From positions 304,960 through 368,959 of the forward strand of contig PMCS01000029.1 in assembly GCA_003154195.1 (NCBI GenBank): a stretch of 64,000 nt of DNA, written 5' to 3'. The DNA comes from Candidatus Omnitrophota bacterium. GTDB lineage: Bacteria > Omnitrophota > Gorgyraeia > Duberdicusellales > 4484-171. The notes under the pieces were generated by a model, which saw only the letters and a list, made by a program, of their open reading frames with translations, did no database searches and was not told the DNA's origin. Position 1 is the first letter of the stretch, and the number at the start of each line of letters is the position of its first letter. The position numbers were made by a program, and so were the translations under genes. Below, one piece after another: positions 32,079-62,452 of the stretch.

Positions 32079-32158
32079 TAAAATAAGGGTGTGTTCTTAT
32101 TATATATTAACCATATTTCCCTGCAGGGGTAGGGAAATAAAAAAAGGAGGTGGGTCAG

Positions 32159-37358: not shown

Positions 37359-37359
37359 A

Positions 37360-42490: not shown

Positions 42491-44191
42491 TTATTCGGTA
42501 ATCGCGAAAACAATTTGTTTTCTTTGGTTATAGATAAATTTTTTAACCCTGTATTTTAATTTACTTATGATATATTTACGATTTTCATTTATTGATTCAT
42601 AATAATCCACTACAAATAACGTTCGGCCGTCATGCCGGTAGCATTCATCTTCCGCTTTATCGTATACAACGTATTTATCCATCTTCGCGGTTTTACGAAA
42701 TTGTCCAGGATTGATTTTGGCAAAAAATAAAACATAAACATAAGCGTACCGGCTGGAAAGTAAAACTACGCGGTCATATCTTTGCGAATTATCCCGGGCG
42801 TATTCGATGGCCTCTTTCCACCCGTAGCTGAACCAATCCTGGGATACGGGAGGGTATATCACAAAATAGGCGTGTAAAAAGAATAAGATGTTGGCAAGAA
42901 TTAATGTAATCATTACAATTTTTATCGCGATATTCCGAATATTTTTCAATAAATAAAATACGCCGGCCGCCGCGATAATCTCGACGAACGGTACACCGGT
43001 TATCGCCCGCAGGGCATGGGGTATTTTATCGTTAGTGAGCGACGCGGGGATAAGCCCAGCCAGGAATAAAATAGCCAGGAGGATAATATTTTTATCCCGT
43101 AGCGGGAATACCCCCGCCGGTAGGCGTGGGGTGAGAGCAGGGCGGGACGTCGCCCCACGGGGGCGTATATAATAGAGGTACCACGGGCGTAAGCCCGTGG
43201 GGCCCCAGTCGCGCCGGGTAAAGACAAGGTAAAATGAGTAAATTATAAACGGCGATAAAAATATCATGATTTTACCGAAACCGGGGATGCCGTGACGCAG
43301 ATTGTAATCGCCGTTAACAAAAATAAAATTGGGCGATAGATGAGCCAGGAAGTTTATAAAAAATTGAGATAGGGGGTGAGCGGAGTTGAAGACCGAGATG
43401 GAATTAAACCTTCTGCTGCCTTGCCCTGATAAAAAAAGTTCATAGGGGGGAAGAGAAATCAATAAAAAAATCAACCCTGCGGCAAGAAAAAATCCGGCGG
43501 CATTCCGTTCCGATTTTAAAAGCGCGGCTATTTGTTTGAGGTAAAACAAAGAAACGATAATGATCGCCAGGGGGATAAAAACTTTCATGACCGGATAAGC
43601 ATATAAAGAAAGGCCGAAGGTAATTGCCGCGGGAATCGCCCATTTCGCGCTATGAAAACTTTTGAGTAATAAAAATAATCCCAGGGTAGTAAAAAATGGT
43701 ACTAAACTTGCTTCGTGCCCCCATCTCGTAATCGGGAGGTGCCATGGCGAAACGGCAAGCAGGAACGCGGCGACGATTCCGATATTCTTATTGAATAATT
43801 TTTTGGCAAAAAAATAGGTGGTTATGGTGGTCAGCGTTCCGATTATCGCCGCGGATAATCTTACCGCGAAGATATTTAGACCGAATAAAAAGATGAAAGG
43901 CGCGGTTAGGTATGTATACATTGCTTCCATGTAGCTCAGGTCGAATCTCTGGGTGTAAAAAGGGAGGAATTTCGCGTGCGTGTCATAGCCGGTTTTAATG
44001 ATGCTAAAAGCGTCATAACCGGCGGCGGCTTCGTCGCAAAAAAATCCGTCGGGGATGGCCGCCAATTTATATAATCTAAGGCTCAGGGCAAAGAGCGCGA
44101 TGAGGGTGAGAACCAAAACGTAACGCTTGGCGGCTAGGAACACAATAATTTTGTTCATCAGAAAGTATTCTACCGTAAAAGTATAAAGCAA
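42491..44191 (-). CDS. GT39/ArnT-PMT-like polytopic glycosyltransferase
   Basis: PDGFFCDEAAAGYDAFSIIKTGYD (DE motif in the first loop), about 12 TM helices. Alternative start at 44158. Confidence 0.55.
   Translation of the reverse strand: MLYTFTVEYFLMNKIIVFLAAKRYVLVLTLIALFALSLRLYKLAAIPDGFFCDEAAAGYDAFSIIKTGYDTHAKFLPFYTQRFDLSYMEAMYTYLTAPFIFLFGLNIFAVRLSAAIIGTLTTITTYFFAKKLFNKNIGIVAAFLLAVSPWHLPITRWGHEASLVPFFTTLGLFLLLKSFHSAKWAIPAAITFGLSLYAYPVMKVFIPLAIIIVSLFYLKQIAALLKSERNAAGFFLAAGLIFLLISLPPYELFLSGQGSRRFNSISVFNSAHPLSQFFINFLAHLSPNFIFVNGDYNLRHGIPGFGKIMIFLSPFIIYSFYLVFTRRDWGPTGLRPWYLYYIRPRGATSRPALTPRLPAGVFPLRDKNIILLAILFLAGLIPASLTNDKIPHALRAITGVPFVEIIAAAGVFYLLKNIRNIAIKIVMITLILANILFFLHAYFVIYPPVSQDWFSYGWKEAIEYARDNSQRYDRVVLLSSRYAYVYVLFFAKINPGQFRKTAKMDKYVVYDKAEDECYRHDGRTLFVVDYYESINENRKYIISKLKYRVKKFIYNQRKQIVFAITE
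43105..43220. repeat. GC-rich hairpin-dense ~115-bp segment embedded in-frame inside the GT39-like gene
   Basis: Local GC spike in an AT-rich gene. Perfect hairpin CCACGGGC-GTAA-GCCCGTGG at 43181-43200, plus CGTGGGG...CCCCACG pairs. Encodes the Pro/Arg-rich stretch IRPRGATSRPALTPRLPAGVFPLRD. Confidence 0.45.
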
Positions 44192-44368: not shown

Positions 44369-46063
44369 ATGCGTAATAGTATTATCTATTTATTAATCTT
44401 TCTTGCTGTTTTAGGAGTGCTTAGCCCTATTGTATTTCTACGTACCTGGCCCCTGACCCATGATACTTCCCGGTATATTGTCCTTTTGGACCATTTTCGC
44501 GCGGCATTTCTCCAGGGGATAATCTATCCTCGTTGGCTTCCCAATCTATACGGCGGTTATGGGTACCCTACTTTTTTATTTTACCAGCCGGGATTTTTCT
44601 ATTTTGCTCTCCCTTTTACTTTTCTTCCCGGGTATCCGGAAAATGCCATACCCCTGGCGGTAATTTTCTTATTCTTTCTCGGCACCGCCGGCGCTTACCG
44701 CCTTTGTAAGGAAATATCTTCCGATAACATGACCGCGCTGTTTTGTTCGCTTTTATTTTTGTTAACGCCCTATCTCTACGTAAATTTTTATGTCCGCGGC
44801 GATTTAAGCGAATTAATGGCGATGTTGCTGTGCCCCTGGCCTTTATATTTTTTGATCAAGCTGAAGAAAAATATTTTTTCGCTTAAATACACAATCAGTT
44901 TGCTTGCTGCTTTAAGCATGGTTTTTATTTCTCACCCGGCAACCGCTTTATTTTTTATCTTGGTTTTTTGCGTTTTTGTCATAGCGCTTTTTTTTGATCT
45001 GCCTTTGGCTTCGCGTAAAAGTTTTCTCATCAACGCGGCGTTTGTGGCTATTGCCGCCGGGATTTTAACTTCGCCGTACTGGTTCACCATATTTAAAATG
45101 AAACCCTATGCTAATATTGAGGTAGTAACCGAAAATTATTTTTTGTGGGAACGCCATTTTGTCTCTGTCCCCCAATTATTTTTGCGCTACCGGGAATTTA
45201 GCGCTTCAGTCCCGGGCCGGGCTGACGTGTCTTTTCAACTGGGAGCATTCCATTTTCTTTTTGCCTTATGCGGTTTTGTAGCCATGCGGCGTAAAAAGGT
45301 TATTGCAGTATCTTTTTTTCTGTATCTATTTTTAATTTTTCTGATGACGCCTTACAGCGCGCCATTATGGCGATGTATTCCTTTTATGAAGTTTGTACAG
45401 TTCCCCTGGAGGATTTTATCGGTTACCGCCACCTTACAGGTTATTTGTGCTTGCGGTATCGCCGCGCTTTTCTCCACGAGTTTTTCCTCCGGGCGTAAAG
45501 TAAGCCTGATGGTGATGTTGCTGGCGCTGATGTTGTTATGGTATTCCCCGCAGTTTAAAATATCCGGCACGCTGGATATCGACGCTTCTCTACGCGAGGC
45601 AAAGATCCCGGAAATTACGCGGTTTGATACCTATACGGCATATAATGAATTTTTACCTAAAGCGGCGCTGGGGAAAACTTTTTTATCCAGCCGTTTCAAT
45701 ACGGGGATGCTTTCGCTAAGCGGATCAGCAAACTGTATTCCTTTTAAAGATAATAGCGAATACCGGCTTCATTATCAAGTCAAGGCTGCCTCGAGGGTAG
45801 TGGCGCGGATTAACCAGCTTTATTTTCCGGGTTGGAAGGTTATGGTTAATGGTAAAACTATTTCGTCTCTATTTCTGGAGAAGAATATTTCAGAAGACCC
45901 GCGGATATTCTTCGTTTTACCCGGGGCCGGAGATTATGAGATTGAAGCATTTTACGACGGCCCGCCGGGTCATTTTAAACATAATATTATAAACGCTTTT
46001 TTAATGACGGTACTAGGCGTTGTTTTAGTTTATTACCGACGGGAGTTGTCAGCTAAGGCCTAA
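44369..46063 (+). CDS. Large polytopic membrane protein, putative GT-C-like glycosyltransferase
   Basis: 564 aa, at least 12 TM helices, conserved-looking loop RWLPNLYGGYGYPTFLFYQPGFFY, and a C-terminal beta-rich domain. Confidence 0.4.
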   Translation: MRNSIIYLLIFLAVLGVLSPIVFLRTWPLTHDTSRYIVLLDHFRAAFLQGIIYPRWLPNLYGGYGYPTFLFYQPGFFYFALPFTFLPGYPENAIPLAVIFLFFLGTAGAYRLCKEISSDNMTALFCSLLFLLTPYLYVNFYVRGDLSELMAMLLCPWPLYFLIKLKKNIFSLKYTISLLAALSMVFISHPATALFFILVFCVFVIALFFDLPLASRKSFLINAAFVAIAAGILTSPYWFTIFKMKPYANIEVVTENYFLWERHFVSVPQLFLRYREFSASVPGRADVSFQLGAFHFLFALCGFVAMRRKKVIAVSFFLYLFLIFLMTPYSAPLWRCIPFMKFVQFPWRILSVTATLQVICACGIAALFSTSFSSGRKVSLMVMLLALMLLWYSPQFKISGTLDIDASLREAKIPEITRFDTYTAYNEFLPKAALGKTFLSSRFNTGMLSLSGSANCIPFKDNSEYRLHYQVKAASRVVARINQLYFPGWKVMVNGKTISSLFLEKNISEDPRIFFVLPGAGDYEIEAFYDGPPGHFKHNIINAFLMTVLGVVLVYYRRELSAKA

Positions 46064-46105
46064 TTATCTGATAATTACTTGCGCAGATTACCGTAGCGCA
46101 GTAAA

Positions 46106-48154
46106 ATGAATTCTATGAATTTTTTTCAAAAAGAAAACAGAGACCACATAGTTATTGTTTTTCTTATTTTTTACGCCGTCCTCTTGTATTCCAGCTCTCT
46201 GCAGGCGCCTTTTTATTTTGACGATTCGCACATGATCGCGAATAATCTTTTTATTAAAAACCCCAGGTATCTCATCTGGATTTTAAAAGGTTATGTTACC
46301 AGCTTTACTATCGCTAAGGGGATGATGCTCCGGCCGTTGCTGATGGTTACTTTTGCCGCAAATTACTGGACCGGCGGCTTGAATCCCGTCGGCTATCATA
46401 TTTTCAATATTCTTTTCCATTTCTTATGCGCCGTTTTTCTTTACCTTTTTTTAAAATTCCTGAAAAAAGACGCGCCGGCCGGGCTGATATTTCTTATCAC
46501 TCTTTTATTCCTGGCGCATCCCTTGAATACGGAAGCCGTTACTTATTTATCCAGCCGTTCCGATTTGATGGTCACTTTGTTTATTGGGTTAGCATTTTTA
46601 CTTTACCTTAAAGGTAAAGCCGTGGCGGCCGTTTTATGCTATCTGTGCAGTTTGCTTACTAAAGAAACTGGTTTATGCTTGCCCCTGCTTGCTTTAGCCT
46701 ACGATTTTATTTTCGCGTCGTCCGCCGCCGATTGCCGCGGGCCGACAGCGGTTTCCCCGGGGCGTGATGTTCTTAAATCGGGGAAAGAAAAAAAGTGGTA
46801 TTTTTACGCGTTTCTGGTTTTGACCACAGTTCTTTATCTTTTTTATAAGAAGACATTTTTTGCTGAGCCTCTCTCGACGCCGCTGCGTTCTTATTATTCC
46901 AACATTCTTATCCAGTCCGCTGTTACTTTTTTTTATCTTAAATTATTCTTCTGGCCTCACCCTTTGATTCTGGTGCATAATTTTCCGGAATTTAACAATA
47001 TCCTCGATCCTATTGCTTTTCTATCGTTTTTGGGGATAGTCGTTTTGGTTATTTTAATTTTTGCCGCAAGAAAGGAATATCCCCTTTTTTCTTTCGGCCT
47101 GGCCTGGTATTTGATTTGCCTTCTTCCTAAATTTTACGCCCGGCTCAATTATACCGCCTGCGAGCACCATTTCTATCTTCCTTCCCTGGGCATCTACATC
47201 ATCCTGCTGGCTGTTTTGCAAAAACTATATGTAAAATACAAACGTTATTTTTTATATCCCGCAGCCGGGATTATTATTATTTGCACACTGCTGGTTTGGC
47301 TAAGAAATTATGAATGGAGTGATGAGTTTCGGTTTTGGAAATTAACGGCCTTGCGCGAACCGCTGTCCAGTAACGCCCACAGTCAATTGGGGGTAGAATA
47401 TATTCGAAGAGGGTTTGTCGACGAGGCTAAGGGTGAGTTTGAAACGGCCCTGCGTTTATCCGATAAATTACCCAGTATTATTAATAATAAAGGCAATCTT
47501 GCGGGTATCTACCGCAGGAAGAAAGATTACACGAAAGCTATATCTTTATTGAACGAACTTACTAAAATTTATCCGGCGCCGCCCAGGGTATATGAAAATA
47601 TGGGGATTATTTATATGGAAATGGGCAGGGAGTCGGAGGCTTTGCGCGCGTGGGTGAAAGAGTTAAGAAATTACCCCCAGTCTCCGGGAATTTATGTCAT
47701 GCTGGGGTTGTATGAGCTTGATCACAAGAAGAATGTGGACCGGGCGCAAAAACTTTTTCAAGAAGCTTTGCGCTTAGAACCGGATGATTATCTGGGTTAT
47801 TATGGCTTGGGGAGAGTGGAGGATAATAGAGGAAATATCGCGCAAGCCGTCGCTTACTACACCAAATCTATTTTCCTGGCTCCCTACTTTTTTGACGCCC
47901 ATTACGCTTTAGGTTTTGTTTATTCCCGAATGGGAGATTTGCGCGCTATAGAGGAATTTAAAACAGCGATTAAGCTCGACCCTTCCGCCGGCCGGGTTTA
48001 TAACGATTTAGCGGTTTTTTACGCCTCCCTTAAAGAGCCGGATTGGCTGTCGGCAAACGTTTATGCTCAAAAGGCAAAACTATCGGGATATTCCGTGAGC
48101 GGCGAATTTTTGGAAATAGTCGATAAAAATCTTAAAAAACAAAATTTGCGCTAA
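46106..48154 (+). CDS. TMTC-like transmembrane glycosyltransferase with TPR repeats, paralog 4
   Basis: FYFDDSHMIANNLFIKNP, DUF1736-like core, and a long C-terminal TPR array. Confidence 0.65.
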   Translation: MNSMNFFQKENRDHIVIVFLIFYAVLLYSSSLQAPFYFDDSHMIANNLFIKNPRYLIWILKGYVTSFTIAKGMMLRPLLMVTFAANYWTGGLNPVGYHIFNILFHFLCAVFLYLFLKFLKKDAPAGLIFLITLLFLAHPLNTEAVTYLSSRSDLMVTLFIGLAFLLYLKGKAVAAVLCYLCSLLTKETGLCLPLLALAYDFIFASSAADCRGPTAVSPGRDVLKSGKEKKWYFYAFLVLTTVLYLFYKKTFFAEPLSTPLRSYYSNILIQSAVTFFYLKLFFWPHPLILVHNFPEFNNILDPIAFLSFLGIVVLVILIFAARKEYPLFSFGLAWYLICLLPKFYARLNYTACEHHFYLPSLGIYIILLAVLQKLYVKYKRYFLYPAAGIIIICTLLVWLRNYEWSDEFRFWKLTALREPLSSNAHSQLGVEYIRRGFVDEAKGEFETALRLSDKLPSIINNKGNLAGIYRRKKDYTKAISLLNELTKIYPAPPRVYENMGIIYMEMGRESEALRAWVKELRNYPQSPGIYVMLGLYELDHKKNVDRAQKLFQEALRLEPDDYLGYYGLGRVEDNRGNIAQAVAYYTKSIFLAPYFFDAHYALGFVYSRMGDLRAIEEFKTAIKLDPSAGRVYNDLAVFYASLKEPDWLSANVYAQKAKLSGYSVSGEFLEIVDKNLKKQNLR

Positions 48155-48205
48155 CTTAAAAAATTACCACAGACAAGCCGCCGTCCGGGGAATGCCTGTT
48201 TGGTT

Positions 48206-48230
48206 GCCTCGCTTTGCGGTCGAAGCGGGC
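48206..48230 (+). promoter_or_regulatory. Conserved hairpin motif GCCTCGCTTTGCGGTCGAAGCGGGC (copy 1 of 2)
   Basis: The stem CGCUUUG/CGAAGCG carries a U-G wobble where the copy at 55531 has a C-G pair. Sits in the 5' region of TMTC-like paralog 5. Confidence 0.5.
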
Positions 48231-48274
48231 CGTCAGGCAAGCGCGGCACATTTTCCCGGTTGAGGAATAGAAAA

Positions 48275-49954
48275 ATGAACCGCAGCAAATACACCGCTAT
48301 TTTTTTTATATCAATATTGGGTATCATCGGCTACGTTAATTCCTCCAACGGTAGATTTATCCTCGACGATAAGATGTTGGTGAGGGACAATGCGTATATA
48401 AGAAGTTTTTCCCGCTTTCCCAGTCTTTTTGCTTCCGATATCGGTTCCGGCGCAGGCTGCACCGCAGGCTACTTTCGTCCCATCCCGATGTTAAATTATA
48501 CACTGGACTATCATTTATGGAAGCTGGATCCCCGCGGGTATCATTTAAGCAATATTATCCTGCATATTCTTGTCGCGCTTTGCGCGTATTGGTTGGCTGA
48601 TATTATTTTTGCCGAAAATATTCTTTCAACGCTGGTGGGAATATTTTTTGTAATTCACCCTATCCAGACCGAAGCCGTGTCTTATATTTCTTCGCGTTCG
48701 GAATTATTGATGGGATTGTTTTCATTCCTTTGTTTTATTTTCTATCTAAAATATTCCGTAAGTGAACCGGCGAAACGGTTGTCAAGTATTGGTTTCTTTT
48801 CCCTCATGTCGCTAAGTTATATTATCGCTCTTCTTTCCAAAGAGACGGCCTTGGTTGTCCCCGTGTTGATTTTGCTTTATAGCTGCGCCTTCGGCAAAAA
48901 AACTAAAAAAAATGCCCTGGCGGGTTTATTGATCGCAGCTATTCTTTACGTAATTTTTAGATCAACCATTTTTCAATCCGTGCCTGTCCATATGGATAGA
49001 TTTGCTACCGTTGTCCCGAGAATTCCGGGAATATTTGTCGCCCTGGTCAAGTATCTTTCGCTGTTGTTATTTCCTTTCGGCACGCATATGAATTATGGAC
49101 TTAAGTTTTTTAGCTTTTTCGACCCGAATGTGCTTGCCGCTGCTATTATCGTCGCCGTTTTAATAATATATACGATAAAAAAAAGGAAGCTTTACCCGCT
49201 TTTATTTTTTTCAGCCGGATGGTTTTTCGTCACGCTGCTGCCCGCTTTAAATATTTATCCGCTCGATTCTTACATGGCGGAACGCTATCTATACCTGCCG
49301 TCTTGGGGATTTTTTTTAGCCCTTGCCTGGGGCTTGAGCCGTTTGTACAAAAATAATAAACTATGGTGTTTGGGCTTGAGCGCATTTTTAATCGTGTCTT
49401 ATTCATTCCTGACTATTAAACAAAATAACTACTGGAAAGATCCGATCAGCCTTTATGGGGCGACGCTTAGGCAGGAACCGGATAACTACCGTATTCATGA
49501 GGCGCTTGCCGGAGAATACTATCTTGAAGGAAGAGTGAATAAAGCCATAGAGGAGTATCTGAAAGCGATAGAAATCAATCCCGGTTATGGCCGGGCATAT
49601 GGTAATCTCGGTAATGTTTTTTGCAAACAGGGAAAAATTAAACAGGCGGTTTTTATGTACATGAAGGCAATAAATTCCCGTTCAGAAAAAGACGTTATCG
49701 GCGCGGCGTATTATAATCTGGGTAATTTATATCTTTCGATAGGAAAAGACAGCCAGGCAGTTGAATTATATAGAAAAGCCGTGGAAATCATCCCCGCCAT
49801 GGCCGCGGCGCATAATAATTTAGCCGTGCTTTATTATTATAACAAAGACTACGGGCTTGCGGTTAAGCATTATAACCAGGCAAGGAAGCTCGGCTATAAT
49901 GTTCATCCGGACTTTAAAAAGGCAATCGATAATTATGCGGGTACAACTCGTTAG
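48275..49954 (+). CDS. TMTC-like transmembrane glycosyltransferase with TPR repeats, paralog 5
   Basis: FILDDKMLVRDNAYIRSF and C-terminal TPRs. The ORF is open from 48200; the first Met before the TM segment is at 48275. Confidence 0.65.
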   Translation: MNRSKYTAIFFISILGIIGYVNSSNGRFILDDKMLVRDNAYIRSFSRFPSLFASDIGSGAGCTAGYFRPIPMLNYTLDYHLWKLDPRGYHLSNIILHILVALCAYWLADIIFAENILSTLVGIFFVIHPIQTEAVSYISSRSELLMGLFSFLCFIFYLKYSVSEPAKRLSSIGFFSLMSLSYIIALLSKETALVVPVLILLYSCAFGKKTKKNALAGLLIAAILYVIFRSTIFQSVPVHMDRFATVVPRIPGIFVALVKYLSLLLFPFGTHMNYGLKFFSFFDPNVLAAAIIVAVLIIYTIKKRKLYPLLFFSAGWFFVTLLPALNIYPLDSYMAERYLYLPSWGFFLALAWGLSRLYKNNKLWCLGLSAFLIVSYSFLTIKQNNYWKDPISLYGATLRQEPDNYRIHEALAGEYYLEGRVNKAIEEYLKAIEINPGYGRAYGNLGNVFCKQGKIKQAVFMYMKAINSRSEKDVIGAAYYNLGNLYLSIGKDSQAVELYRKAVEIIPAMAAAHNNLAVLYYYNKDYGLAVKHYNQARKLGYNVHPDFKKAIDNYAGTTR

Positions 49955-51323
49955 ATACCAGGATCTGGCAAATATAAACACGCGGTTGGCGCAAAGTTTG
50001 AATAAACACCAGGGCGTCTTACCTCCTTTGGGTATAGCCTATATTGCCTCTTCTCTCGAAAAAGCGAATCATGACGTTGATATCATTGATGCAATCGCGC
50101 TTAAAATGTCAAGAGATCAGGTGCGGCGCCGGATAAGAGAATTCCACCCGGATGTTGTCGGGATTACGGCAATGACCCCTACTTTTCCAGGCGCGAAAGA
50201 AGCCGCGTGGCTGGCGAAACAAGAAGGCGCGATAACCGTGATGGGCGGCGTGCATATGGCGATTTTTGCCGAAGAAACATTATCTTATGATTATGTTGAT
50301 TTTGGCGTAATCGGAGAAGCCGAGGAAACGATTGTTGAGCTGTGCGCCGCGATAGAAAATAAACAGCCATTCGAGCCGATCAAAGGGTTGGCTTTTAAAA
50401 AAGACGGCAAGATTATTGCCGGCCGGCCGAGAATCATAGAAGATTTAGATAGTTTGCCGATGCCGGCGTACCATCTTTTGCCGATGGATAAATATTCTTC
50501 CATCATCGGTTTGCACCCTGTTTCTACCATGATGGCTTCGCGCGGCTGCCCTTACCGGTGTGGTTTTTGTTATAAGACCCCTTCGGACGTCAAGCATCGT
50601 TATCGAAATTACGCGCAGGTTGCCGATGAGATGGAATTTCTTATCAAAAATTATCGCGTCAAAGAAATAATGTTCTATGATGACCTGATGATGCCGCAAT
50701 TTGTGGAAAACTTATGCAATGAGATTTTAAAACGTAAGTTAAAAATCGCCTGGCAGTCTCCCCAAAGAGTAAATTTAGTAACCTTCCCCTTGCTGAAGTT
50801 GATGAAAAAAGCGGGATGCCGTATGCTCAGGTATGGTATCGAGCAGGGCGATCCGGAAATGATGCGGCTGATTGAAAAAAATATTACTTTGCAAGGGGCA
50901 AAAGATGCGTTGCGCTGGACGCATCAGGCCGGCATAGAGACTTTTACTTATTATATTATCGGATATCCCGGCGAAAACGAAAGAACGGTTAGGGCGACGA
51001 TCAACCTTGCCAAGGAGTTGGATTCGCGTTATGCTATGTTCACTAAAGCGGTGCCTCTACCGGGAACAAAATTAATGGAATCGGCGGCTGGGAAGGGGCT
51101 GGTTGAACAAGATTATTGGCGTAAATTCATTTTGGGGCAAAATGTTAAACCGCTGCCTGATTTTATCCCGGGAACGGAAAAGTGGGTAGAGCGCGCGTAT
51201 AAAGAATTTTATTTGCGGCCGGCTAAAATAATAAAACAAATCGCGAGCATTCGCGGGTGGGAGGATATTAAAAAAAGTATCGCCGGTTTTATGGGGTTGG
51301 TAAATTTTAAAATGAGAGAATAA
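49935..51323 (+). CDS. B12-binding domain radical SAM enzyme (class B radical SAM family)
   Basis: N-terminal cobalamin-binding-like Rossmann domain (IAYIASSLEKANHDVDIIDA) and the radical SAM cluster motif CPYRCGFC. The ORF is open from 49857, so it overlaps the upstream gene. Confidence 0.75.
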   Translation: MRVQLVRYQDLANINTRLAQSLNKHQGVLPPLGIAYIASSLEKANHDVDIIDAIALKMSRDQVRRRIREFHPDVVGITAMTPTFPGAKEAAWLAKQEGAITVMGGVHMAIFAEETLSYDYVDFGVIGEAEETIVELCAAIENKQPFEPIKGLAFKKDGKIIAGRPRIIEDLDSLPMPAYHLLPMDKYSSIIGLHPVSTMMASRGCPYRCGFCYKTPSDVKHRYRNYAQVADEMEFLIKNYRVKEIMFYDDLMMPQFVENLCNEILKRKLKIAWQSPQRVNLVTFPLLKLMKKAGCRMLRYGIEQGDPEMMRLIEKNITLQGAKDALRWTHQAGIETFTYYIIGYPGENERTVRATINLAKELDSRYAMFTKAVPLPGTKLMESAAGKGLVEQDYWRKFILGQNVKPLPDFIPGTEKWVERAYKEFYLRPAKIIKQIASIRGWEDIKKSIAGFMGLVNFKMRE

Positions 51324-52204
51324 TGAGTATTGTAAAATATTTATTTTTATCTATACGGCCGAAGCAGTGGATCAAAAATTTGTTTATCATCTTACCGTTG
51401 ATCTTCGGCAGGAAACTTTTTTTTTACCCGGACAATGGCAGGGCTTTTTTAGCGCTTTTACTTTTTTCTTTAACCAGTAGCGCCGTCTATCTATTGAACG
51501 ATATTATTGATATTGAGAAAGATAAGTTCCATCCGGTTAAATCAAGCCGGCCGCTCGCTTCCGGAAAAATCAGCGTAAGAGATGCCGCTATTGTTTCAGC
51601 CCTATTGGGAATTGTTTCTACTTTTTTTTCTTTTGTCCTGGATATCGGCTTGGGATGGACAGTCATCGCCTATCTTGGCGTTAACCTTTTCTACTCTCTT
51701 TTTCTGAAGAATATAGTAATCATTGATATATTTTGCGTGGGTTGTTTTTTCCTTTTGCGTATCCTGGCCGGCGGTTTTGCCGCGCATGTTTTAATATCTC
51801 ACTGGATTATAATTATGACTTTTTTTCTCGCGCTTTTTTTAGGCTTTGTCAAAAGGCGCCAGGAGTTAATCATGCTGGAAGAAAACTCTGCTTATCATCG
51901 AACAGTTTTAAGCAAATATAATTCTTATTTTATCGACCAGTTGATAACAGTAATCGTTTCTTCAATTGTGGTGAGTCATATGTTGTATACCGTAGACGCC
52001 AGGACGGTAAAGGAATTCGGTAGCCGGCATTTGCTTTACAGCGTTCCTTTTGTTTATTATGGAATTTTTCGTTATCTTTATCTAATACATAAGGCTAAAA
52101 CCGACGGCGATCCTACGAATATTTTATTGTCGGATAGGCCGCTGCAGGCCGCGGTTATTTTTTGGGTTATTGTTTGTATCGCGGTGGTTTATTTTGGCCT
52201 CTAA
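51323..52204 (+). CDS. UbiA-family prenyltransferase, decaprenyl-phosphate phosphoribosyltransferase (DPPR synthase)-like
   Basis: RPKQWIKN...SAVYLLNDIIDIEKDKFHP...RPLASGKIS...RILAGGFAA...VKRRQEL closely parallels the mycobacterial Rv3806c-type sequence pattern, including the NDxxDxxxD motif. Confidence 0.7.
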   Translation: MSIVKYLFLSIRPKQWIKNLFIILPLIFGRKLFFYPDNGRAFLALLLFSLTSSAVYLLNDIIDIEKDKFHPVKSSRPLASGKISVRDAAIVSALLGIVSTFFSFVLDIGLGWTVIAYLGVNLFYSLFLKNIVIIDIFCVGCFFLLRILAGGFAAHVLISHWIIIMTFFLALFLGFVKRRQELIMLEENSAYHRTVLSKYNSYFIDQLITVIVSSIVVSHMLYTVDARTVKEFGSRHLLYSVPFVYYGIFRYLYLIHKAKTDGDPTNILLSDRPLQAAVIFWVIVCIAVVYFGL

Positions 52205-52385
52205 TTAAAATTATTTATCGAAACGGGCGCAGTTTTTTGATTTTGTCAAAGGCGGGGAATGGAGTATAATATACTGGAAGAGGCTAAAGGCGCTTCGCTT
52301 AATTCTCATGGGACATTAAGCGTGGTGGGTTTAGCTGAAAGAAATAATTGTGGCGGGCGACCGGGTTTCATTGAGGAGGCGAATA

Positions 52386-53011: not shown

Positions 53012-54517
53012 TTGCCGATGGGGAAGATAAAAGACGGCATATCGCATAATTTAGCTTTGTTTATCGCTGTTTGTTTTGTTGTCGCTTATTTTGCTTTTCT
53101 TCAATTTCTCTCGCCGGCTTTATACTGTCCCGATAGCTACTATCATATCAGCGTCTCCCGGTTTATAAAAGATTACGGCCCGCGCTACGATTTTCACTGG
53201 GCTCAAATTTCCACGTTTAAATATGCCTTCTCCGATAAGGACTTTTTATTCCACGTTTTAAGTATACCTTTTTTGTATCTTTCGAAAAATATAATTTTCG
53301 CGGGAAAATTGGCGGTGGTTTTCTTTAATATCTTTTTTGTATTTAGCTATGTTTTTATTTTGCGAAAATATGTCCAGCCTTTTTTAGCCGCCTGCATTTT
53401 AATCCTGCCGTTATCTTCTTATTTATTTTCCATTTACTTTCTATATCTCCGCAGCATCACTCTGGCTAATATTTTTATGATTTTTAGTATCTATTTTCTT
53501 ATCAATAAAAAGTGGATTACAGTTTTTGTCCTGGCTTTATTGTATCCGCTTGCCCATATTTCTTTTTTTACCGTAATAATTTTTGCTTTTATTTGCGAAA
53601 TAATAAGATATTTTTGCAAAAAAGAATTTTTTTCTCATAACCTCTATGCGGTTATCCTGGGCTCGGTTTTAGGATGTTTTATCCATCCCAATTGCCCCAA
53701 CAATTTACTATCGTTTTATCTCAACGGTTTTTTAGTGCCTTTGCATACGTTAAATAATACCGGTGCAGATTTAGCCAGGGAGCTTTTTTCTTCCCCGGCA
53801 CGTGCTATTTTTATCGACAATTTCGCCGTATTCTTCACCATCAATCTTGTTTTTTGGCTCTTGTTCTGCCTAAAGATAAACGTAAGTTTTTCGACTCTGG
53901 TATGGTGGGGATGCACGACGATCTATCTGGTATTGGGTTTTTGGTCAAACCGCTACTGGTATCAGGTAAACATTTTATTTTTTATTTTTTTTGCCTCGTT
54001 CATAAAAGACTGGGGTATAGAAAAGAACCGGCAAAATTTTTCAAAAAGAATAAATATTCTCCTTGTCGCGTATTTTGCGCTGATTTTTATAGCAAGCTCC
54101 GCGGGTTTTGAAGATTTAAAAATTTCTATGCGACACAAAATAGCAGACCATATTTATTATGAAGATATCAGCCGCTGGATGGAGAAAAATATCCCCGCCG
54201 GCGAGACAATTTACCATACGGCGGTAAGCGATTCCCCATTTTTTATATGCTTAAATCCCAAGAATAATTATTTCGTTGTTTTAGACCCCATTTACATGTA
54301 TTATCCTTACCCCAAAATTTATGCGCTTTATCGCGATTTAGGGAACGGGAAGGTGCGCGTTCCCGCCGAGGTTTTAAGAAAAGTGTTTAACGTTGGCTAC
54401 GGGTTCGTCAGGAAGGATAGGGCGTTATGCGGACAAATTAAAAACGATCACGTTAATTTCAAAATTCTTTACGAGAATGAGATAGGTATTGTTTTCAAAA
54501 TAAATAAAACTTGCTAA
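53012..54517 (+). CDS. Large polytopic membrane protein, putative GT-C-like glycosyltransferase
   Basis: 501 aa with at least 11 TM helices, a first-loop motif YCPDSYYH, and a C-terminal soluble domain. Confidence 0.35.
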   Translation: MPMGKIKDGISHNLALFIAVCFVVAYFAFLQFLSPALYCPDSYYHISVSRFIKDYGPRYDFHWAQISTFKYAFSDKDFLFHVLSIPFLYLSKNIIFAGKLAVVFFNIFFVFSYVFILRKYVQPFLAACILILPLSSYLFSIYFLYLRSITLANIFMIFSIYFLINKKWITVFVLALLYPLAHISFFTVIIFAFICEIIRYFCKKEFFSHNLYAVILGSVLGCFIHPNCPNNLLSFYLNGFLVPLHTLNNTGADLARELFSSPARAIFIDNFAVFFTINLVFWLLFCLKINVSFSTLVWWGCTTIYLVLGFWSNRYWYQVNILFFIFFASFIKDWGIEKNRQNFSKRINILLVAYFALIFIASSAGFEDLKISMRHKIADHIYYEDISRWMEKNIPAGETIYHTAVSDSPFFICLNPKNNYFVVLDPIYMYYPYPKIYALYRDLGNGKVRVPAEVLRKVFNVGYGFVRKDRALCGQIKNDHVNFKILYENEIGIVFKINKTC

Positions 54518-54625: not shown

Positions 54626-55510
54626 ATGGCAAGAAGGAGGCCTAACGGGGTGAAGATAAGCGTTGTTTTACCGGCTTATAACGAGGCGGAAAATTTAAAG
54701 AATATATTGCCCGGAATTCGTAAGACCATGGGCGATGCGGCAGAAATCATCGTAGTGGACGATGCGTCGAGCGACCAAACGGCGCTCGTTGCCAGGGACT
54801 TTGGCGCGACGGTGATAAAAAATCCCTATAATATGGGTAACGGCGCCGCGGTCAAGCGCGGTATCCGCAGGGCCGGCGGCGACATTATCGTGTTGATGGA
54901 TTCTGACGGCCAGCACCGGCCGCAAGATATACCCCTGCTTTTAAAAGAATTGGACGATTTCGATATGGTTATCGGCGCGAGAACCAATTCCCAACAGGTT
55001 TGGTGGCGTAAATCTGCCAACGCGCTTTATAACTGTTTAGCTTCCTATGTTACGGATGTCAAGATCGACGATTTAACTTCGGGATTCCGGGTATTTAAAA
55101 AAGCGCAGGCGCTGAAATTTCTTTATTTGCTGCCTAATACTTTTTCTTACCCCTCAACGTTAACGCTGGCATTTATTAAGGCTTCTTATCCGGTTAAATT
55201 TGTTCCCGTGAATGTTCTTGCTCGGAGCAGGGGGGAAAGCAAGATAAATCTGATTAAAGACGGTTCGCGTTTCCTTTCGATTATTATGAAAATCAGCGTT
55301 TTTTTCGCGCCGCTGAAAGTATTTTTACCGGTTTCTCTGCTTTTCTTTTTTACCGGCCTCGGCTATTATAGTTATACTTTTTTTCTTTTCCACCGTTTTA
55401 CCAACATGAGCGCTCTGCTTTTTACCGCTTCCATTATCATCTTTATGCTTGGGCTTATTTCCGAACAAGTCGCTTCCTTAAAGATGGAAAAGATAGACGA
55501 AGAATCTTAA
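54626..55510 (+). CDS. GT2 polyprenol-phosphate sugar synthase (ArnC/GtrB/DPM1-like) with C-terminal TM anchor
   Basis: ISVVLPAYNEAENL...VVDDASSD...DSDGQH (DxD) with C-terminal TM helices. AAGGAGG lies 11 nt before the GTG at 54650, which may be the true start. Confidence 0.8.
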   Translation: MARRRPNGVKISVVLPAYNEAENLKNILPGIRKTMGDAAEIIVVDDASSDQTALVARDFGATVIKNPYNMGNGAAVKRGIRRAGGDIIVLMDSDGQHRPQDIPLLLKELDDFDMVIGARTNSQQVWWRKSANALYNCLASYVTDVKIDDLTSGFRVFKKAQALKFLYLLPNTFSYPSTLTLAFIKASYPVKFVPVNVLARSRGESKINLIKDGSRFLSIIMKISVFFAPLKVFLPVSLLFFFTGLGYYSYTFFLFHRFTNMSALLFTASIIIFMLGLISEQVASLKMEKIDEES

Positions 55511-55573: not shown

Positions 55574-55672
55574 TCTCGCTCGCCTCTCGGCGTCCGCCTC
55601 GGCGAGCTTTCGGCCCTCGGCTTTGTCCACCTCGGCAAGTCTTTGGCGAGACGGGCCGAGAGGCGAGCGAGA
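55574..55672. repeat. GC-rich long palindrome with 18-bp terminal stem and internal CTCGGCNAG triplicate
   Basis: TCTCGCTCGCCTCTCGGC at 55574-55591 pairs perfectly with GCCGAGAGGCGAGCGAGA at 55655-55672. The interior holds ctcggcgagcttt / ctcggctttgtcc / ctcggcaagtcttt. Confidence 0.6.
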
Positions 55673-55711
55673 CGGGAAGCTGATGTCGATTCACTTAAAG
55701 AGGATATGGAG

Positions 55712-57205
55712 CAAAAAAAATATAAATTGCCCCTGGTGTTTTTATCGTTGATCTTCTGGGTTTTTATTTTTATCAATATCTCCGGGGATTTTGTTAACTT
55801 CGGCGGCGACAGCAGCCAATACATAATCCTGGCGGAAAGCCTTGCGAGAGGTACGGGGTATCACGCGATCAATCAGCCCGGTTCGCCGTCATTTTTCTAT
55901 TATCCGCCTGTTTTTCCTTTGATTATTTCCCCGATTATTTATTTTTTTGGAAGAAACTTCTATTTAATGTATTTATTGATTGCTGTTTTCGGTTATTTAA
56001 GCTTGATTTTTCTTTACTATTTTTTTAAAACGCAGGCAGGAAGGGATATCGCATTTTTTTCCACGGCCTATTTAGCGTTGAACAACATCTTTATTTTTTA
56101 TTCTTCCGGGGTGATTTTATCGGAAATACCGTATTTATTTTTTTCGTCTTTTGCCCTTTACGCCGCTCATAAATATTTTTACGCGCCGGTATGCTTCGGC
56201 AAAGAAGCGATTTTACTTATCCTGGGTTTAATTGCCGCCTATCTCACGCGTTATATCGGGATAGTTTTATTTCCGGCCACGGTTATTTTTTTGTTCTTCT
56301 CCTGGGATAAGCGAAAGGCAGTTTTTGTCGCTTCTTCTTTTATCGCTTTTTTTATTCTTTGGCAAACTGTTATTAAAGCCGGAGGCGCATCTTCGAGCCT
56401 CCACTATCAACAATTGCTTTTAATCGATCCCTACCGGCCGTTTTTGGGAAATATCTTAACCAACCCGGGTTTTCTTCTTCTCCGTTTTATTGAAGGGATT
56501 AACTATTACGCCTATCTCACCGGAAGCATTTTCCTGCCGGTTTTTTTAAAAGGTTTTTGGGCGCGCAGTTTCTATCCGCCGGCGGTGTTTATTGTGATTA
56601 TTTATGGTGTATGCTGCGATTTTTTCGGGAACCGCAGCCGCTTGCTTCCTTCCTATTTTATTTTTTATTTTCTCCTTACCGTTTTATGGCCGTTTAAGGA
56701 AGGCGTAAGATTTTTAGTGCCTATTTTACCGTTTTTTGTTTACTATATTTTTATTGCGCTTAAATCTTTGACGTCATTTTTAAAAAGCCAGATGATCGCC
56801 CGGTATATTTTTTACGTGCCGGCAATTTTTATTATTTTTTTTTCCAATACCCCGGCTTTCCCCATTAAGCAATACGCTTACCAGGATTTATCTAAGGAGC
56901 TTAAGAATTTTATCGCGCTGCACCTATGGATCAAAAACAATATTCCCGCAAACAGTATTATTGCCGGCCGCAAGCCTACCCTTACTTATTTTTATACCGG
57001 ACGGCAGGCTTTGGACTATCCTTTTACTCTCAACGATGAAGAAATGAAGCAATTCTTCGTCGACAACCATGTTGATTATGTGATCATCGACGAATTTTCT
57101 CAGGAAACCCGCAGCTATCTTCTGCCGTTTTTAAAAAAGTATAACCGTAGTTTCAAGCTAACGTATCGTGTAGGAAATACATTGTTGTTGGAAAAGATAA
57201 AATGA
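55712..57205 (+). CDS. GT39/ArnT-PMT-like polytopic glycosyltransferase
   Basis: GGDSSQYIILAESLARGTGYH first-loop motif and at least 11 TM helices. RBS AAGAGGA before the ATG at 55712. The track ORF starts at 55643, inside the palindrome. Confidence 0.55.
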   Translation, partial: QKKYKLPLVFLSLIFWVFIFINISGDFVNFGGDSSQYIILAESLARGTGYHAINQPGSPSFFYYPPVFPLIISPIIYFFGRNFYLMYLLIAVFGYLSLIFLYYFFKTQAGRDIAFFSTAYLALNNIFIFYSSGVILSEIPYLFFSSFALYAAHKYFYAPVCFGKEAILLILGLIAAYLTRYIGIVLFPATVIFLFFSWDKRKAVFVASSFIAFFILWQTVIKAGGASSSLHYQQLLLIDPYRPFLGNILTNPGFLLLRFIEGINYYAYLTGSIFLPVFLKGFWARSFYPPAVFIVIIYGVCCDFFGNRSRLLPSYFIFYFLLTVLWPFKEGVRFLVPILPFFVYYIFIALKSLTSFLKSQMIARYIFYVPAIFIIFFSNTPAFPIKQYAYQDLSKELKNFIALHLWIKNNIPANSIIAGRKPTLTYFYTGRQALDYPFTLNDEEMKQFFVDNHVDYVIIDEFSQETRSYLLPFLKKYNRSFKLTYRVGNTLLLEKIK

Positions 57206-62417: not shown

Positions 62418-62440
62418 ATTATCCCGGAGGGGATAGCCGG
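62367..62440. repeat. AATGAGACTTC-family repeat copy overlapping the GT4 3' end
   Basis: aatgagacttcgtcgataatgaaacttgcccggtactccgggcctagttgaatta, then a cccggagggg hairpin. Confidence 0.65.
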
Positions 62441-62452
62441 ATTAATAAACCG

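Follow-up and report, generated by a model that had tools for sequence, protein, structure and literature searches.

A 64,000-nt stretch of DNA from Candidatus Omnitrophota bacterium (referred to here as the window) encodes a cobalamin (Cbl)-domain, class-B radical SAM (rSAM) protein whose gene is translationally coupled to, and in the same operon as, a gene for a UbiA-family DPPR synthase. Judged from sequence, the protein would serve as a tailoring enzyme in the supply of a lipid-linked pentofuranose donor, with methylation as the likeliest chemistry; we put the probability of this reading at roughly one in three. That the enzyme acts on the UbiA product or on another lipid-linked sugar donor is probable, and methyl transfer as the overall reaction is offered tentatively. 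A sequence-only reading of this DNA had placed a class-B enzyme with a cobalamin domain and the cluster motif CPYRCGFC here, overlapping the upstream gene and lying between a TMTC-like gene and the UbiA/DPPR-synthase gene. The Pfam domains, the cluster motif, three Cbl motifs, the gene coordinates, and matches of the UbiA protein to NF008977 and Rv3806c bear out each of these points (Table 1).

Table 1. Features of the rSAM locus (window coordinates)
Feature	Position	Strand	Basis
PTPS_related-type multi-pass membrane protein (GT-C-like), first gene of co-directional run	44369..46063	+	PF10131, E = 1.4e-5, below Pfam cutoff
Second TPR-fused GT-C-like protein, same run	46106..48154	+	
GT-C-type membrane protein with C-terminal TPR repeats (TMTC-like), upstream of rSAM	48200..49954 (likely start 48275)	+	TPR Pfam matches, gene calls
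Class-B (B12-domain) rSAM protein, 462 aa	49935..51323	+	PF02310 and PF04055; start from homologue alignment
N-terminal Rossmann-type cobalamin-binding domain, residues 26-136	50010..50342	+	PF02310, E = 4.8e-26, model positions 9-120 of 121
Downstream Cbl-binding motif G76-I-T78-A-M80-T81, beta3 loop	50160..50177	+	Translation GITAMT
Gly-Gly motif G104-G105 on beta4, cobalamin-tail pocket	50244..50249	+	Invariant in 65 sequences
Gly-Glu motif G127-E128, start of alpha5	50313..50318	+	Invariant in 65 sequences
Radical SAM partial TIM-barrel core, residues 202-358	50538..51008	+	PF04055, E = 2e-20
CX3CX2C [4Fe-4S] cluster motif CPYRCGFC (C205, C209, C212)	50547..50570	+	Translation; three Cys invariant
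UbiA-family polyprenyl-phosphate 5-phosphoribosyltransferase (DPPR synthase/PPPRS)	51323..52204	+	NF008977, PDB 8j8j
Catalytic loop N59-D60-x-x-D63-x-x-x-D67 of PPPRS	51497..51523	+	Aligned to Rv3806c NDvrDveaD
501-aa unannotated membrane protein, GT-C fold, Omnitrophota-specific family	53012..54517	+	AF2 and Foldseek
GT2, polyprenyl-phosphate-sugar synthase type (AglJ/PpgS/ArnC-like)	54626..55510	+	

Gene boundaries, domains, and cobalamin motifs

The ORF listing contained a longer frame for the rSAM gene (49857..51323), beginning at an upstream TTG. Because the aligned N terminus, M(R/K)(V/I)xL(I/V)RY, is the common start of all 14 full-length homologues aligned, and because independent gene calls on identical contigs also give 462 aa, we take the ATG at 49935 as the true start. 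From there, the gene overlaps the end of the upstream TPR/GT-C gene by 20 nt; at its other end, the TAA stop shares one base with the UbiA ATG (TAATG at 51321-51325). The ORF is real and no chance match: 3,957 homologues have an E value of <1e-10, and the best 120 of these comprise the exact sequence (100%) and others that are 51-69% identical, nearly all of them aligned along the full length. The protein is predicted to be soluble and cytoplasmic, and its AlphaFold (AF2) model has a pLDDT of 94.2.

Membership in the radical SAM superfamily follows from the CX3CX2C motif at residues 205-212 within a partial TIM barrel and from a model that fits radical SAM folds, the closest being AprD4, MgmA, and TsrM, with OxsB also a strong fold match. 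Structurally characterized class-B enzymes bind base-off Cbl through a downstream G-x-S/T-x-X motif, a Gly-Gly motif on beta4, and a Gly-Glu motif on alpha5 (PMC9204698). The window protein has the N-terminal Rossmann-type B12-binding domain together with all three motifs (GxTxM, GG, and GE); among 65 homologues, M80 and T81 never vary and G76 and T78 are retained in 90% or more, with Met80 at the lower-axial-face position. As AprD4 illustrates, a B12-like domain alone is no proof of cobalamin dependence. That the three motifs are invariant or nearly so across the homologues argues for real Cbl use. The beta1-alpha1 loop is 24 residues long here and highly conserved (NTRLxxSLNxxQGxLPPLG), compared with 6 residues for MetH and 11 for both TsrM and TokK (PMC9204698).

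Placement among radical SAM families

The rSAM protein and its closest relatives form a tight clade of their own (clade A; 48-77% identity), and neither the protein nor any of the 65 members reaches an NCBIfam family cutoff. The best-scoring curated family is BchE (TIGR02026; 190 bits versus a cutoff of 481), against which the best of the 65 members attains an E value of 1.3e-78 and still falls under the cutoff. The scores for HpnJ (TIGR03471; 181 versus 577.6) and HpnR (88.6 versus 650) are likewise low, as are those for the TsrM-type (56/500), PhpK (119/600), MgmA-type (90/360), KedN5 (74/700), and rSAM_ocin_1 (106/282) models. The match to the AprD4 model (NF033070; 72 versus 500) is confined to core residues 166-393. 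Methylase families were checked through the NCBIfam output, in which GenK, Fom3, and HpnP have no entry. Identity to true BchE and true HpnJ is about 30%, and in a tree that did not include HpnR, both are remote outgroups to clade A. The sequence-only reading had named phylogenetic placement as a check and grouping with BchE/HpnR-type enzymes as evidence against it; the protein groups with neither BchE nor HpnJ by score and tree, nor with HpnR by score.

Conserved gene linkage to a DPPR synthase

Assignment of the neighboring UbiA protein is well grounded: it scores 253.9 (cutoff, 234) against NF008977, the decaprenyl-phosphate phosphoribosyltransferase model, and aligns end to end with Mycobacterium tuberculosis Rv3806c (PDB 8j8j; E = 7.7e-39). 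It also contains the NDxxDxxxD loop that marks the PPPRS of three-component systems, in which the equivalent residues are needed for activity of Citrobacter youngae ORF15 and M. tuberculosis DPPRS (PMC11127046).

Neighborhoods of related rSAM genes were scanned at nonredundant loci, over as much flanking sequence as each locus offered, to a maximum of 10 kb per side. A DPPR-synthase-type UbiA gene lies near the rSAM gene in 18 of 22 dereplicated clade-A loci versus 1 of 60 loci of more distant homologues (Fisher P = 1.1e-11, calculated on an earlier count of 15/19 versus 1/60), and the neighborhood check proposed earlier thus finds the UbiA link conserved. The UbiA gene is usually adjacent, it alone among the partner genes occurs in most clade-A loci, and the junctions are tight or overlapping in several. 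All 10 partner UbiA proteins tested (from nine clade-A loci and L065) match only DPPR-synthase models, 6 of them above the cutoff. Clade-A rSAM and PPPRS genes occur together across phyla and domains, the hosts being Omnitrophota, Planctomycetota, other uncultured (including marine) bacteria, and a Methanosarcinales archaeon.

Two further functions recur at these loci. A phosphatase of the HAD, PGP, or PHP type is present in nine (L002, L003, L008, L024, L026, L027, L099, L100, and L101; for L100, the assignment follows from how large its UbiA fusion is and how it aligns), and in L002 and L099 it is an N-terminal HAD domain fused to UbiA. Such nonorthologous displacement is as expected for a step that removes a 5-phosphate. 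A GT-C protein found in nine related loci matches mycobacterial AftB (PDB 9dlf; E = 3.4e-15), with the match confined to its N-terminal catalytic region, and 7 of 7 family members match the NCBIfam beta-arabinofuranosyltransferase model. At two Proteobacteria-like loci (L002 and L099), the available sequence contains no GT-C gene. In other genomes, the conserved GT-C partner is of this AftB-like kind and not of the TMTC-like kind recognized earlier in the window.

Loci L107 and L108 are isolated three-gene modules (DPPR synthase, rSAM, and AftB-like GT-C) located between unrelated genes, and the triad also occurs in the Methanosarcinales archaeon (L018). An adh_short short-chain dehydrogenase gene lies 7 kb away in L108. 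In neither the window nor the Pfam-annotated related loci did we find a DprE1-type (FAD_binding_4/ALO) or DprE2 gene. In several related loci, diverged B12-rSAM paralogues stand in tandem groups of two or three, an arrangement typical of multi-methylation pathways. At three clade-A loci (L030, L035, and that of P0092), the rSAM gene sits beside an NTP_transferase-GT2 fusion gene and no UbiA gene, which suggests that the substrate may be broader than ribose; more distant homologues reside in generic sugar-modification clusters.

Within the window, many GT-C genes flank the rSAM/UbiA pair. The upstream TPR/GT-C protein shares 38% identity along its entire length with a PMT_2-TPR paralogue encoded at 32987-34645. 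The 501-aa protein gave no match in a Pfam search, and its AF2 model (pLDDT, 93.3) retrieves STT3, AglB, PglB, and ArnT in Foldseek (E values down to 1e-7; TM scores of 0.6-0.67). The GT2 protein has a relative in the small GT2 found with rSAM at other loci (phmmer E = 4.5e-18 to 2.4e-22 against those of L003 and L030). No phosphatase for ribose 5-phosphate and no AftB-like partner were found in the window. Neither the annotated genes nor the gaps of the 32- to 64-kb island include an ORF for a MATE, SMR, or GtrA-type flippase; a flippase of an unrecognized kind may be present.

Proposed pathway and alternative explanations

In the pathway that we propose, UbiA would make polyprenyl-P-ribofuranose-5-phosphate from PRPP at the cytoplasmic face, and a phosphatase (HAD, PHP, or housekeeping) would remove the 5-phosphate. 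The rSAM protein would then alter the ribose, still bound to its lipid, and the altered donor would be flipped and transferred by a GT-C enzyme, either TPR-fused or another GT-C here and AftB-like in most other genomes. In this order, the rSAM protein would stand where mycobacteria have DprE1/DprE2 and Citrobacter has the SDR epimerase ORF13. C-methylation appears the most likely reaction, with radical epimerization ranked second. For methylation, a 5'-deoxyadenosyl radical would take the hydrogen of a ribose C-H, methylcobalamin would give a methyl radical to that carbon, and a second SAM would remethylate the cobalamin; the product would be a C-methyl pentofuranose or, if the methyl is added at C5, a 6-deoxyhexofuranose. 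To our knowledge, no C-methyl pentofuranose occurs in any glycan. Most characterized class-B rSAM enzymes are methyltransferases (PMC9204698). In favor of this explanation we count the domains and Cbl motifs, the TAATG coupling, the PPPRS partner, the conserved neighborhood with its phosphatase and AftB-like GT-C, the isolated modules, the lack of a DprE1-type gene in the annotated loci and the window, the tandem paralogues, and the prevalence of methyltransferases among characterized class-B enzymes. Against it we count the top scores of the non-methylating BchE and HpnJ, the lack of any glycan known to us with a C-methyl pentofuranose, the window without a phosphatase or AftB-like partner, the NTP_transferase-GT2 loci, and the two loci without a GT-C gene.

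The protein could instead be a radical epimerase that replaces DprE1/DprE2, abstracting H2 (or H3) of polyprenyl-P-ribofuranose and returning hydrogen to the opposite face, so as to supply polyprenyl-P-arabinofuranose (or xylofuranose) to the AftB-like arabinofuranosyltransferase. If so, a single enzyme, independent of oxygen and quinone, would substitute for an FAD oxidase and reductase pair. We consider this unlikely. The radical SAM epimerases known to us (NeoN, PoyD, YydG/EpeE, and HygY) do not use cobalamin, yet all Cbl motifs are conserved here; the invariant Cys295, a possible H donor, is also present in distant homologues lacking a UbiA partner and is therefore not clade specific; locus L109 has, in addition, a gene of the SDR epimerase family two positions upstream of UbiA; and the N-terminal AftB similarity does not fix the identity of the donor. 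Epimerization nonetheless draws support from the triad of DPPR synthase, rSAM, and AftB-like GT-C, which parallels the mycobacterial DPA pathway minus its epimerase step, from the absence of DprE1/DprE2-type genes noted above, from the suitability of a mass-neutral, one-enzyme conversion for modules without a reductase, and from auxiliary epimerases being a known route of pentose diversification in such systems (PMC11127046). More doubtful still is other radical chemistry on the lipid-linked sugar, whether its C2-C3 diol undergoes AprD4-like 1,2-diol dehydration or deoxygenation, the sugar is oxidized to a ketosugar, or its ring is rearranged in the manner of OxsB or HpnJ. A strong fold match is OxsB, an enzyme that contracts the ring of a deoxyribose, and the best curated scores are to BchE and HpnJ, which are not methyltransferases, the substrate of HpnJ being a lipid-linked sugar (PMC9204698). 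However, the GG and GE motifs kept in clade A are missing from HpnJ, the AprD4 match is far below its cutoff and limited to the core, and dehydration would need an AprD3-like partner reductase, none of which is conserved or present in L107 or L108.

It is also improbable that the enzyme serves the same pathway but acts on another molecule, such as the polyprenyl carrier, an acceptor (glycan or protein) that has already received the sugar, or a soluble precursor (sugar-1-phosphate or nucleotide sugar). Pairing of some clade members with an NTP_transferase-GT2 fusion or GT2 instead of UbiA, the sugar-modification clusters of distant homologues, and the predicted soluble, cytoplasmic location agree with such a role. 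The occurrence of UbiA, alone among the partners, in most clade-A loci, its tight or overlapping junctions in several, and the few alternative substrates left by the three-gene modules speak against it, and the extracytoplasmic acceptor would presumably be out of reach for an enzyme that depends on SAM and a reductant. An unrelated function, in which the adjacency is incidental and the protein is a BchE-, HpnJ-, or HpnR-type pigment or hopanoid enzyme, is very improbable: the highest-scoring NCBIfam models are those for BchE and HpnJ, and one source annotates one homologue as an anaerobic Mg-protoporphyrin cyclase, but all 65 members score far under the cutoffs, both families are remote outgroups at about 30% identity, and no bch or hpn genes were found among the annotated genes and gaps of the window (at a true HpnJ locus, hpnJ adjoins hpnI). 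The neighborhood statistics effectively refute such a role.

Protein O-glycosylation, as suggested earlier, is shown by nothing here, and a polyprenyl-phospho-pentofuranose donor pathway fits better. We found no literature describing a link between class-B rSAM enzymes and DPPR synthases, and the recurrence of the pairing in distant bacteria and archaea points to an undescribed step in the formation of unusual five-carbon cell-surface sugars. Mycobacterial arabinan, whose pathway is targeted by ethambutol and benzothiazinones, depends on lipid-linked pentofuranose donors, as do the glycosylation of Pseudomonas pilin and many side chains of O antigens. As far as we know, lipid-bound ribose is diversified only by the FAD/NADH-dependent DprE1/E2 pair or by an SDR epimerase; the rSAM enzyme would be a third, chemically different route, would extend class-B rSAM chemistry to polyprenyl-phosphate sugars, and predicts that widespread uncultured lineages (Omnitrophota, Planctomycetota, marine bacteria, and Methanosarcinales) carry a new surface sugar. 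We see even odds that this is the first rSAM family acting on a polyprenyl-P-linked sugar donor, turning polyprenyl-P-ribofuranose either into a sugar so far unknown from glycans (6-deoxyhexofuranose or a C-methyl pentofuranose) or, in one step and without oxygen, into the arabinofuranose donor for which mycobacteria rely on the drug targets DprE1 and DprE2; the three-gene module would then be a portable cell-surface cassette transferred between bacteria and archaea.

Comparison with known systems

Class-B rSAM enzymes that act on sugars include GenK/GenD1 and Fom3 (C-methylation), OxsB (ring contraction), and HpnJ (ring contraction on hopanoid-linked glucosamine), with AprD4 as a Cbl-independent relative. 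The window protein shares with this group the Rossmann Cbl domain, the CX3CX2C partial TIM barrel, a C-terminal cap, and the GxTxM, GG, and GE motifs; it differs in its low identity (only 16-22%) to every solved structure, its sub-cutoff NCBIfam scores, and its long beta1-alpha1 loop. We know of no precedent among class-B rSAM enzymes for a polyprenyl-phosphate sugar substrate such as that proposed here. BchE shares the domain order and the GG and GE motifs but is set apart by score, identity, and tree position, and the context here holds no bacteriochlorophyll genes.

The mycobacterial decaprenyl-phospho-arabinose (DPA) pathway comprises the DPPR synthase Rv3806c, the phosphatase Rv3807c, DprE1/DprE2, and AftB with other arabinofuranosyltransferases. 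Shared with it are an Rv3806c-homologous UbiA, an AftB-matching GT-C in related loci, and a gene logic running from synthase through tailoring to GT-C; here, however, an rSAM gene stands in place of DprE1/DprE2, and the hosts are not Actinobacteria. Three-component polyprenyl-phospho-pentofuranose systems were described by Kelly, Duong, Nothof, Lowary, and Whitfield (PNAS 2024; PMC11127046), in whose text the term radical SAM has 0 occurrences. Their auxiliary enzyme is the SDR epimerase ORF13 (yielding Xylf) or DprE1/E2 (yielding Araf), whereas here it would be a B12-domain rSAM protein; moreover, no MATE flippase was seen here, and the GT-C partners are AftB-like or TPR-fused. Common to both are a UbiA-type PPPRS for a polyprenyl-P-ribofuranose donor and, in related loci, a phosphatase that is often fused as a HAD domain; as in those systems, a GT-C enzyme would carry out the transfer here, and, if the role proposed for the rSAM protein is correct, an auxiliary cytoplasmic enzyme would change the pentose before export.

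A class-B radical SAM protein outside the characterized families compared

The radical SAM open reading frame spans 49857 to 51323 on the plus strand if counted from an upstream TTG. The ATG at 49935 is nonetheless the real start, because the aligned motif M(R/K)(V/I)xL(I/V)RY opens 14 of 14 full-length homologues and the protein is 462 residues long in gene calls made on identical public contigs. Pfam recovers a complete B12-binding domain (residues 26 to 136, E = 4.8e-26) and a Radical_SAM core (residues 202 to 358, E = 2e-20), while the cluster motif CPYRCGFC is encoded at 50547 to 50570 and the start of the gene overlaps the stop of its upstream neighbor (49954) by 20 nt. On these grounds, the sequence-only reading of a class-B radical SAM enzyme overlapping the preceding gene was confirmed. 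An AlphaFold model built with 65 homologues (pLDDT 94.2, pTM 0.91) displays the three-part class-B architecture. This model scores similarly against methylases, a ring-contracting enzyme, and a diol dehydratase; since these chemistries differ, the fold confirms the class and cannot discriminate the reaction.

Class-B enzymes carry a cobalamin signature composed of G-x-S/T-x-X on the β3 loop, Gly-Gly on β4, and Gly-Glu on α5 (Bridwell-Rabb, Li, and Drennan; PMC9204698). The full signature is present here as G76-I-T78-A-M80, G104-G105, and G127-E128, and its (near) invariance across the 65 homologues argues for genuine use of cobalamin. In the same alignment, the Gly-Gly and Gly-Glu motifs are retained by BchE and by clade A, the tight clade to which the window protein belongs, but are missing from a bona fide, annotated HpnJ from Paraburkholderia (locus L105). 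With these cobalamin-tail motifs missing, it may be asked whether HpnJ is a cobalamin-binding protein at all. The β1-α1 loop ("His loop") of the B12 domain comprises 24 residues (residues 11 to 34, window 49965 to 50036) with the almost invariant sequence NTRLxxSLNxxQGxLPPLG, a loop shared with the nearest sister groups only; its counterpart has 6 residues in MetH and 11 in TsrM and TokK (PMC9204698). We also considered Cys295 as a clade-specific H-atom donor and rejected it as uninformative, since this residue also occurs in distant homologues without a UbiA partner.

Although the protein has the structural features of class-B enzymes, it falls outside every characterized family against which it was compared. 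The best NCBIfam scores (relative to cutoffs) were 190 (481) for BchE, 181 (578) for HpnJ, 89 (650) for HpnR, 56 (500) for the TsrM type, and 72 (500) for AprD4, and none of the 65 family members reached the curated cutoff of any NCBIfam family. In a neighbor-joining tree, true BchE and HpnJ (∼30% identical) are remote outgroups. A library clustered at 50% identity holds just one full-length representative at least 50% identical to the window protein, beyond which scores drop steeply into a continuum of >10,000 class-B clusters. Judged by sequence identity (48 to 77% internally), the protein is a member of a narrow, well-conserved clade. Scanning genome contigs with this single protein returned 9 relatives, all archaeal and 41 to 44% identical. 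A search for cultured, annotated organisms with an orthologue on a plasmid gave none; the top match (36.8% identical) is an unannotated record from S. clavuligerus.

Conserved linkage to a DPPR-synthase-type UbiA

The stop codon of the radical SAM gene and the start codon of the downstream UbiA gene have one base in common (TAATG, 51321 to 51325). Together with three upstream GT-C-like genes, the pair forms a tight codirectional run (44369 to 52204), directly past which lies the top promoter-like site of the region (52243 to 52270), a consensus match only. The window UbiA scores above the NCBIfam cutoff for decaprenyl-phosphate phosphoribosyltransferase (253.9 versus 234), contains the catalytic loop NDxxDxxxD, and aligns end to end with Rv3806c of M. 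tuberculosis (PDB entry 8j8j; E = 7.7e-39). An archaeal-type ether lipid pathway, in which UbiA would be a DGGGP synthase accompanied by a Tes/Grs-type radical SAM enzyme, was rejected, as the match to DGGGP synthase reached only 6e-4 compared to 7.7e-39 for DPPR synthase.

To survey gene neighborhoods, six-frame open reading frames from 109 loci carrying homologues of the radical SAM protein (designated by L numbers) were searched with the window UbiA. Within the available sequence (up to 10 kb on each side), 18 of the 22 clade-A loci left after dereplication contain a DPPR-synthase-type UbiA, compared to 1/60 for more distant homologues (34 to 40% identity); Fisher's exact test, computed on an earlier count of 15/19 versus 1/60, gave p = 1.1e-11. 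The two genes are usually adjacent; in most loci they overlap or lie no more than a few hundred nucleotides apart. Three of the four clade-A loci lacking UbiA are truncated contigs (L019, L021, and L028). All 10 partner UbiAs tested (nine from clade A and one from L065) match DPPR-synthase or HAD-UbiA models only, six of them above the cutoff. The proposed connection to the UbiA product is therefore upheld at the level of gene linkage. A BchE/HpnR-type grouping and an unconserved gene position, which together would have counted against the sequence-only reading, are contradicted by the subcutoff scores and by this conserved linkage.

In the literature searched, which excluded most subscription journals, we found no paper that connects polyprenyl-phosphate-pentofuranose, PPPRS, or DPPR pathways with a radical SAM enzyme, and the term "radical SAM" is absent from Kelly et al. 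2024 (PMC11127046). This linkage is robust, covers a broad phylogenetic range, and has no description in that literature; its chemistry is still a guess.

Recurrent partners in related loci

A phosphatase recurs in several forms: as a HAD domain fused to the N terminus of UbiA (L002 and L099), as a PGP-type fusion (L003 and L100), as a separate HAD protein (L008 and L024), and as a PHP-domain protein (L024, L026, L027, and L101). Such nonorthologous displacement is the pattern that would be expected for a step removing the ribose 5-phosphate.

Nine loci (L001, L003, L018, L024, L065, L100, L107, L108, and L109) additionally encode a membrane protein family of ∼480 to 680 residues with no Pfam match, in every case beside a DPPR-synthase-type UbiA and a B12-radical SAM protein. 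The family profile matches the mycobacterial arabinofuranosyltransferase AftB (PDB entry 9dlf; E = 3.4e-15), 7/7 members match the NCBIfam beta-arabinofuranosyltransferase model, and a loop motif, DDxFIxYRY...GLVFNxGE, is conserved. This family, distantly related to AftB, may be a new family of GT-C enzymes that transfer pentofuranosyl residues outside Actinobacteria. In L107 and L108, the triad of UbiA, radical SAM protein, and AftB-like GT-C stands isolated amid unrelated housekeeping and metabolic genes. The triad also occurs in a Methanosarcinales archaeon (L018, one of the nine archaeal relatives from the contig scan) and, with a more distant B12-radical SAM protein, in L065.

One or two extra B12-radical SAM paralogues, some in direct tandem, are present in L003, L008, L024, L025, L099, L100, and L109. 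As these are 25 to 41% identical to one another and to clade A, we rejected the idea that they constitute a second conserved clade. SPASM-type radical SAM genes were also observed nearby in L101, L030, and L109.

In three loci without an adjacent UbiA (L030, 8426 to 9877; L035, 749 to 2197; and the locus of P0092), the clade-A member adjoins a fusion of a sugar-1-phosphate nucleotidylyltransferase (NTP_transferase) and a GT2. The GT2 half is homologous to a small GT2 accompanying the radical SAM gene in L003 and L100, and DPANN archaeal relatives likewise adjoin a GT2. The fusion in place of UbiA suggests partner switching between two routes for loading a sugar onto a carrier. If those GT2s make polyprenyl-phosphate sugars, the shared denominator would be a polyprenyl-phosphate monosaccharide, not ribose specifically.

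The glycosyltransferase island

The pair sits within a 31-kb island (32987 to 63895) of ∼13 GT-C-type membrane glycosyltransferase genes, a density unusual for one locus, along with two GT2 genes and one GT4 gene. The TPR-fused GT-C overlapping the radical SAM gene is 38% identical to a PMT_2-plus-TPR paralogue, and a PDB sequence search with its N-terminal domain gave no matches. The 501-residue membrane protein, with 113 homologues of which nearly all come from Omnitrophota, apparently represents an undescribed GT-C family, as judged from its predicted fold. The two proteins sharing an unassigned membrane domain lie 3 kb apart and have common motifs such as MMWLN(L/V)WGAHYNF. Neither an AftB-like gene nor a recognizable phosphatase partner was found in the window.

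Pseudomonas aeruginosa TfpW glycosylates pilin with D-arabinofuranose. Two small open reading frames with a prokaryotic N-terminal methylation motif lie directly upstream of the island and, by analogy, could be glycosylation acceptors; just before them is a GH94-family gene. Farther away, this Omnitrophota genome encodes a full-length serpin, and nuclease-type genes scattered among housekeeping genes may be remnants of mobile or defense elements. The PNPase of the window shares 61 to 71% identity with its 119 closest database relatives; those bearing an organism name all come from Candidatus Omnitrophota, which places the host among the uncultured members of this group.

Features of the window
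Position	Strand	Feature	Remarks
421-1829; 14277-15350		NucS-like, ORF6N, and YhcG/DUF1016 PDDEXK-nuclease genes	
15896-17149	-	Serpin	PF00079, E = 6e-116
28149-30782	-	GH94-family protein, 877 aa	Cellobiose/chitobiose phosphorylase or cyclic beta-1,2-glucan synthase-like
31076-31447		Small ORF	Type IV pilin-like
32150-32539		Small ORF	Type IV pilin-like
32987-34645	-	GT-C	C-terminal TPR fusion
37330-38967		GT-C	C-terminal TPR fusion
38975-40558	-	GT-C	PMT_2/STT3-like
40545-42407	-	GT-C	C-terminal TPR fusion
42491-44191	-	GT-C	PMT_2/STT3-like
46106-48154		GT-C	C-terminal TPR fusion
48200-49954		GT-C	C-terminal TPR fusion
49935-51323	+	B12-radical SAM protein	Clade A
51323-52204	+	UbiA	DPPR synthase (PPPRS) homologue
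53012-54517		Membrane protein, 501 aa	No Pfam family; model pLDDT 93.3, STT3/AglB/PglB/ArnT-like GT-C fold
55643-57205		GT-C	PMT_2/STT3-like
57221-59374		GT2 fused to large multipass membrane domain	Membrane half without Pfam match
59492-61096		GT-C	PMT_2/STT3-like
62414-63895		Stand-alone paralogue of the 57221-59374 membrane half	No Pfam match

Proposed role and comparison with known systems

In the three-component systems of Kelly et al. 2024 (PMC11127046) and the mycobacterial decaprenyl-phospho-arabinose (DPA) pathway, a UbiA-type PPPRS turns PRPP into polyprenyl-phosphate-ribofuranose-5-phosphate and a phosphatase then strips the 5-phosphate. The ribose can optionally be converted in the cytoplasm, by DprE1/E2 to Araf or by an SDR to Xylf, before the donor is flipped and the sugar is transferred by a GT-C. 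Because the radical SAM protein is the sole nontransferase enzyme of these modules, we place it, with a probability of roughly 0.7, at the tailoring step, where it would act on lipid-linked ribose. A substrate elsewhere in the pathway is improbable.

As to the reaction at this step, cobalamin-dependent C-methylation ranks first, tentatively, because the cobalamin motifs are conserved, the class-B enzymes characterized so far are mostly methylases (PMC9204698), and several related loci hold two or three diverged paralogues, as in multimethylation pathways. Ranked second, and unlikely, is a single-enzyme radical epimerization replacing DprE1/E2. The AftB-like partner favors it, as does the lack of DprE1/E2, no DprE1-type gene (FAD_binding_4/ALO) having been seen in the Pfam-annotated related loci or the window; however, no radical SAM epimerase known to us is cobalamin dependent, and an SDR epimerase-family gene lies nearby in L109. 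Dehydration, oxidation, or rearrangement of the same lipid-linked ribose appears less likely again. Of the sequence-only reading, the enzyme class and the UbiA link stand; the reaction it offered (C-methylation of a sugar or lipid carrier, or radical epimerization) and its "protein O-glycosylation" context are unproven.

No flippase of known type was found in the window operon or island. Set against three-component (PMC11127046) and DPA-type pentofuranose systems, the operon corresponds only loosely in its GT-C, and a phosphatase is found in related loci only. The PPPRS itself is present, and overall the operon would work like those systems. The HAD-UbiA fusion of L002 and L099 has the architecture of the characterized Citrobacter ORF15 (PMC11127046).
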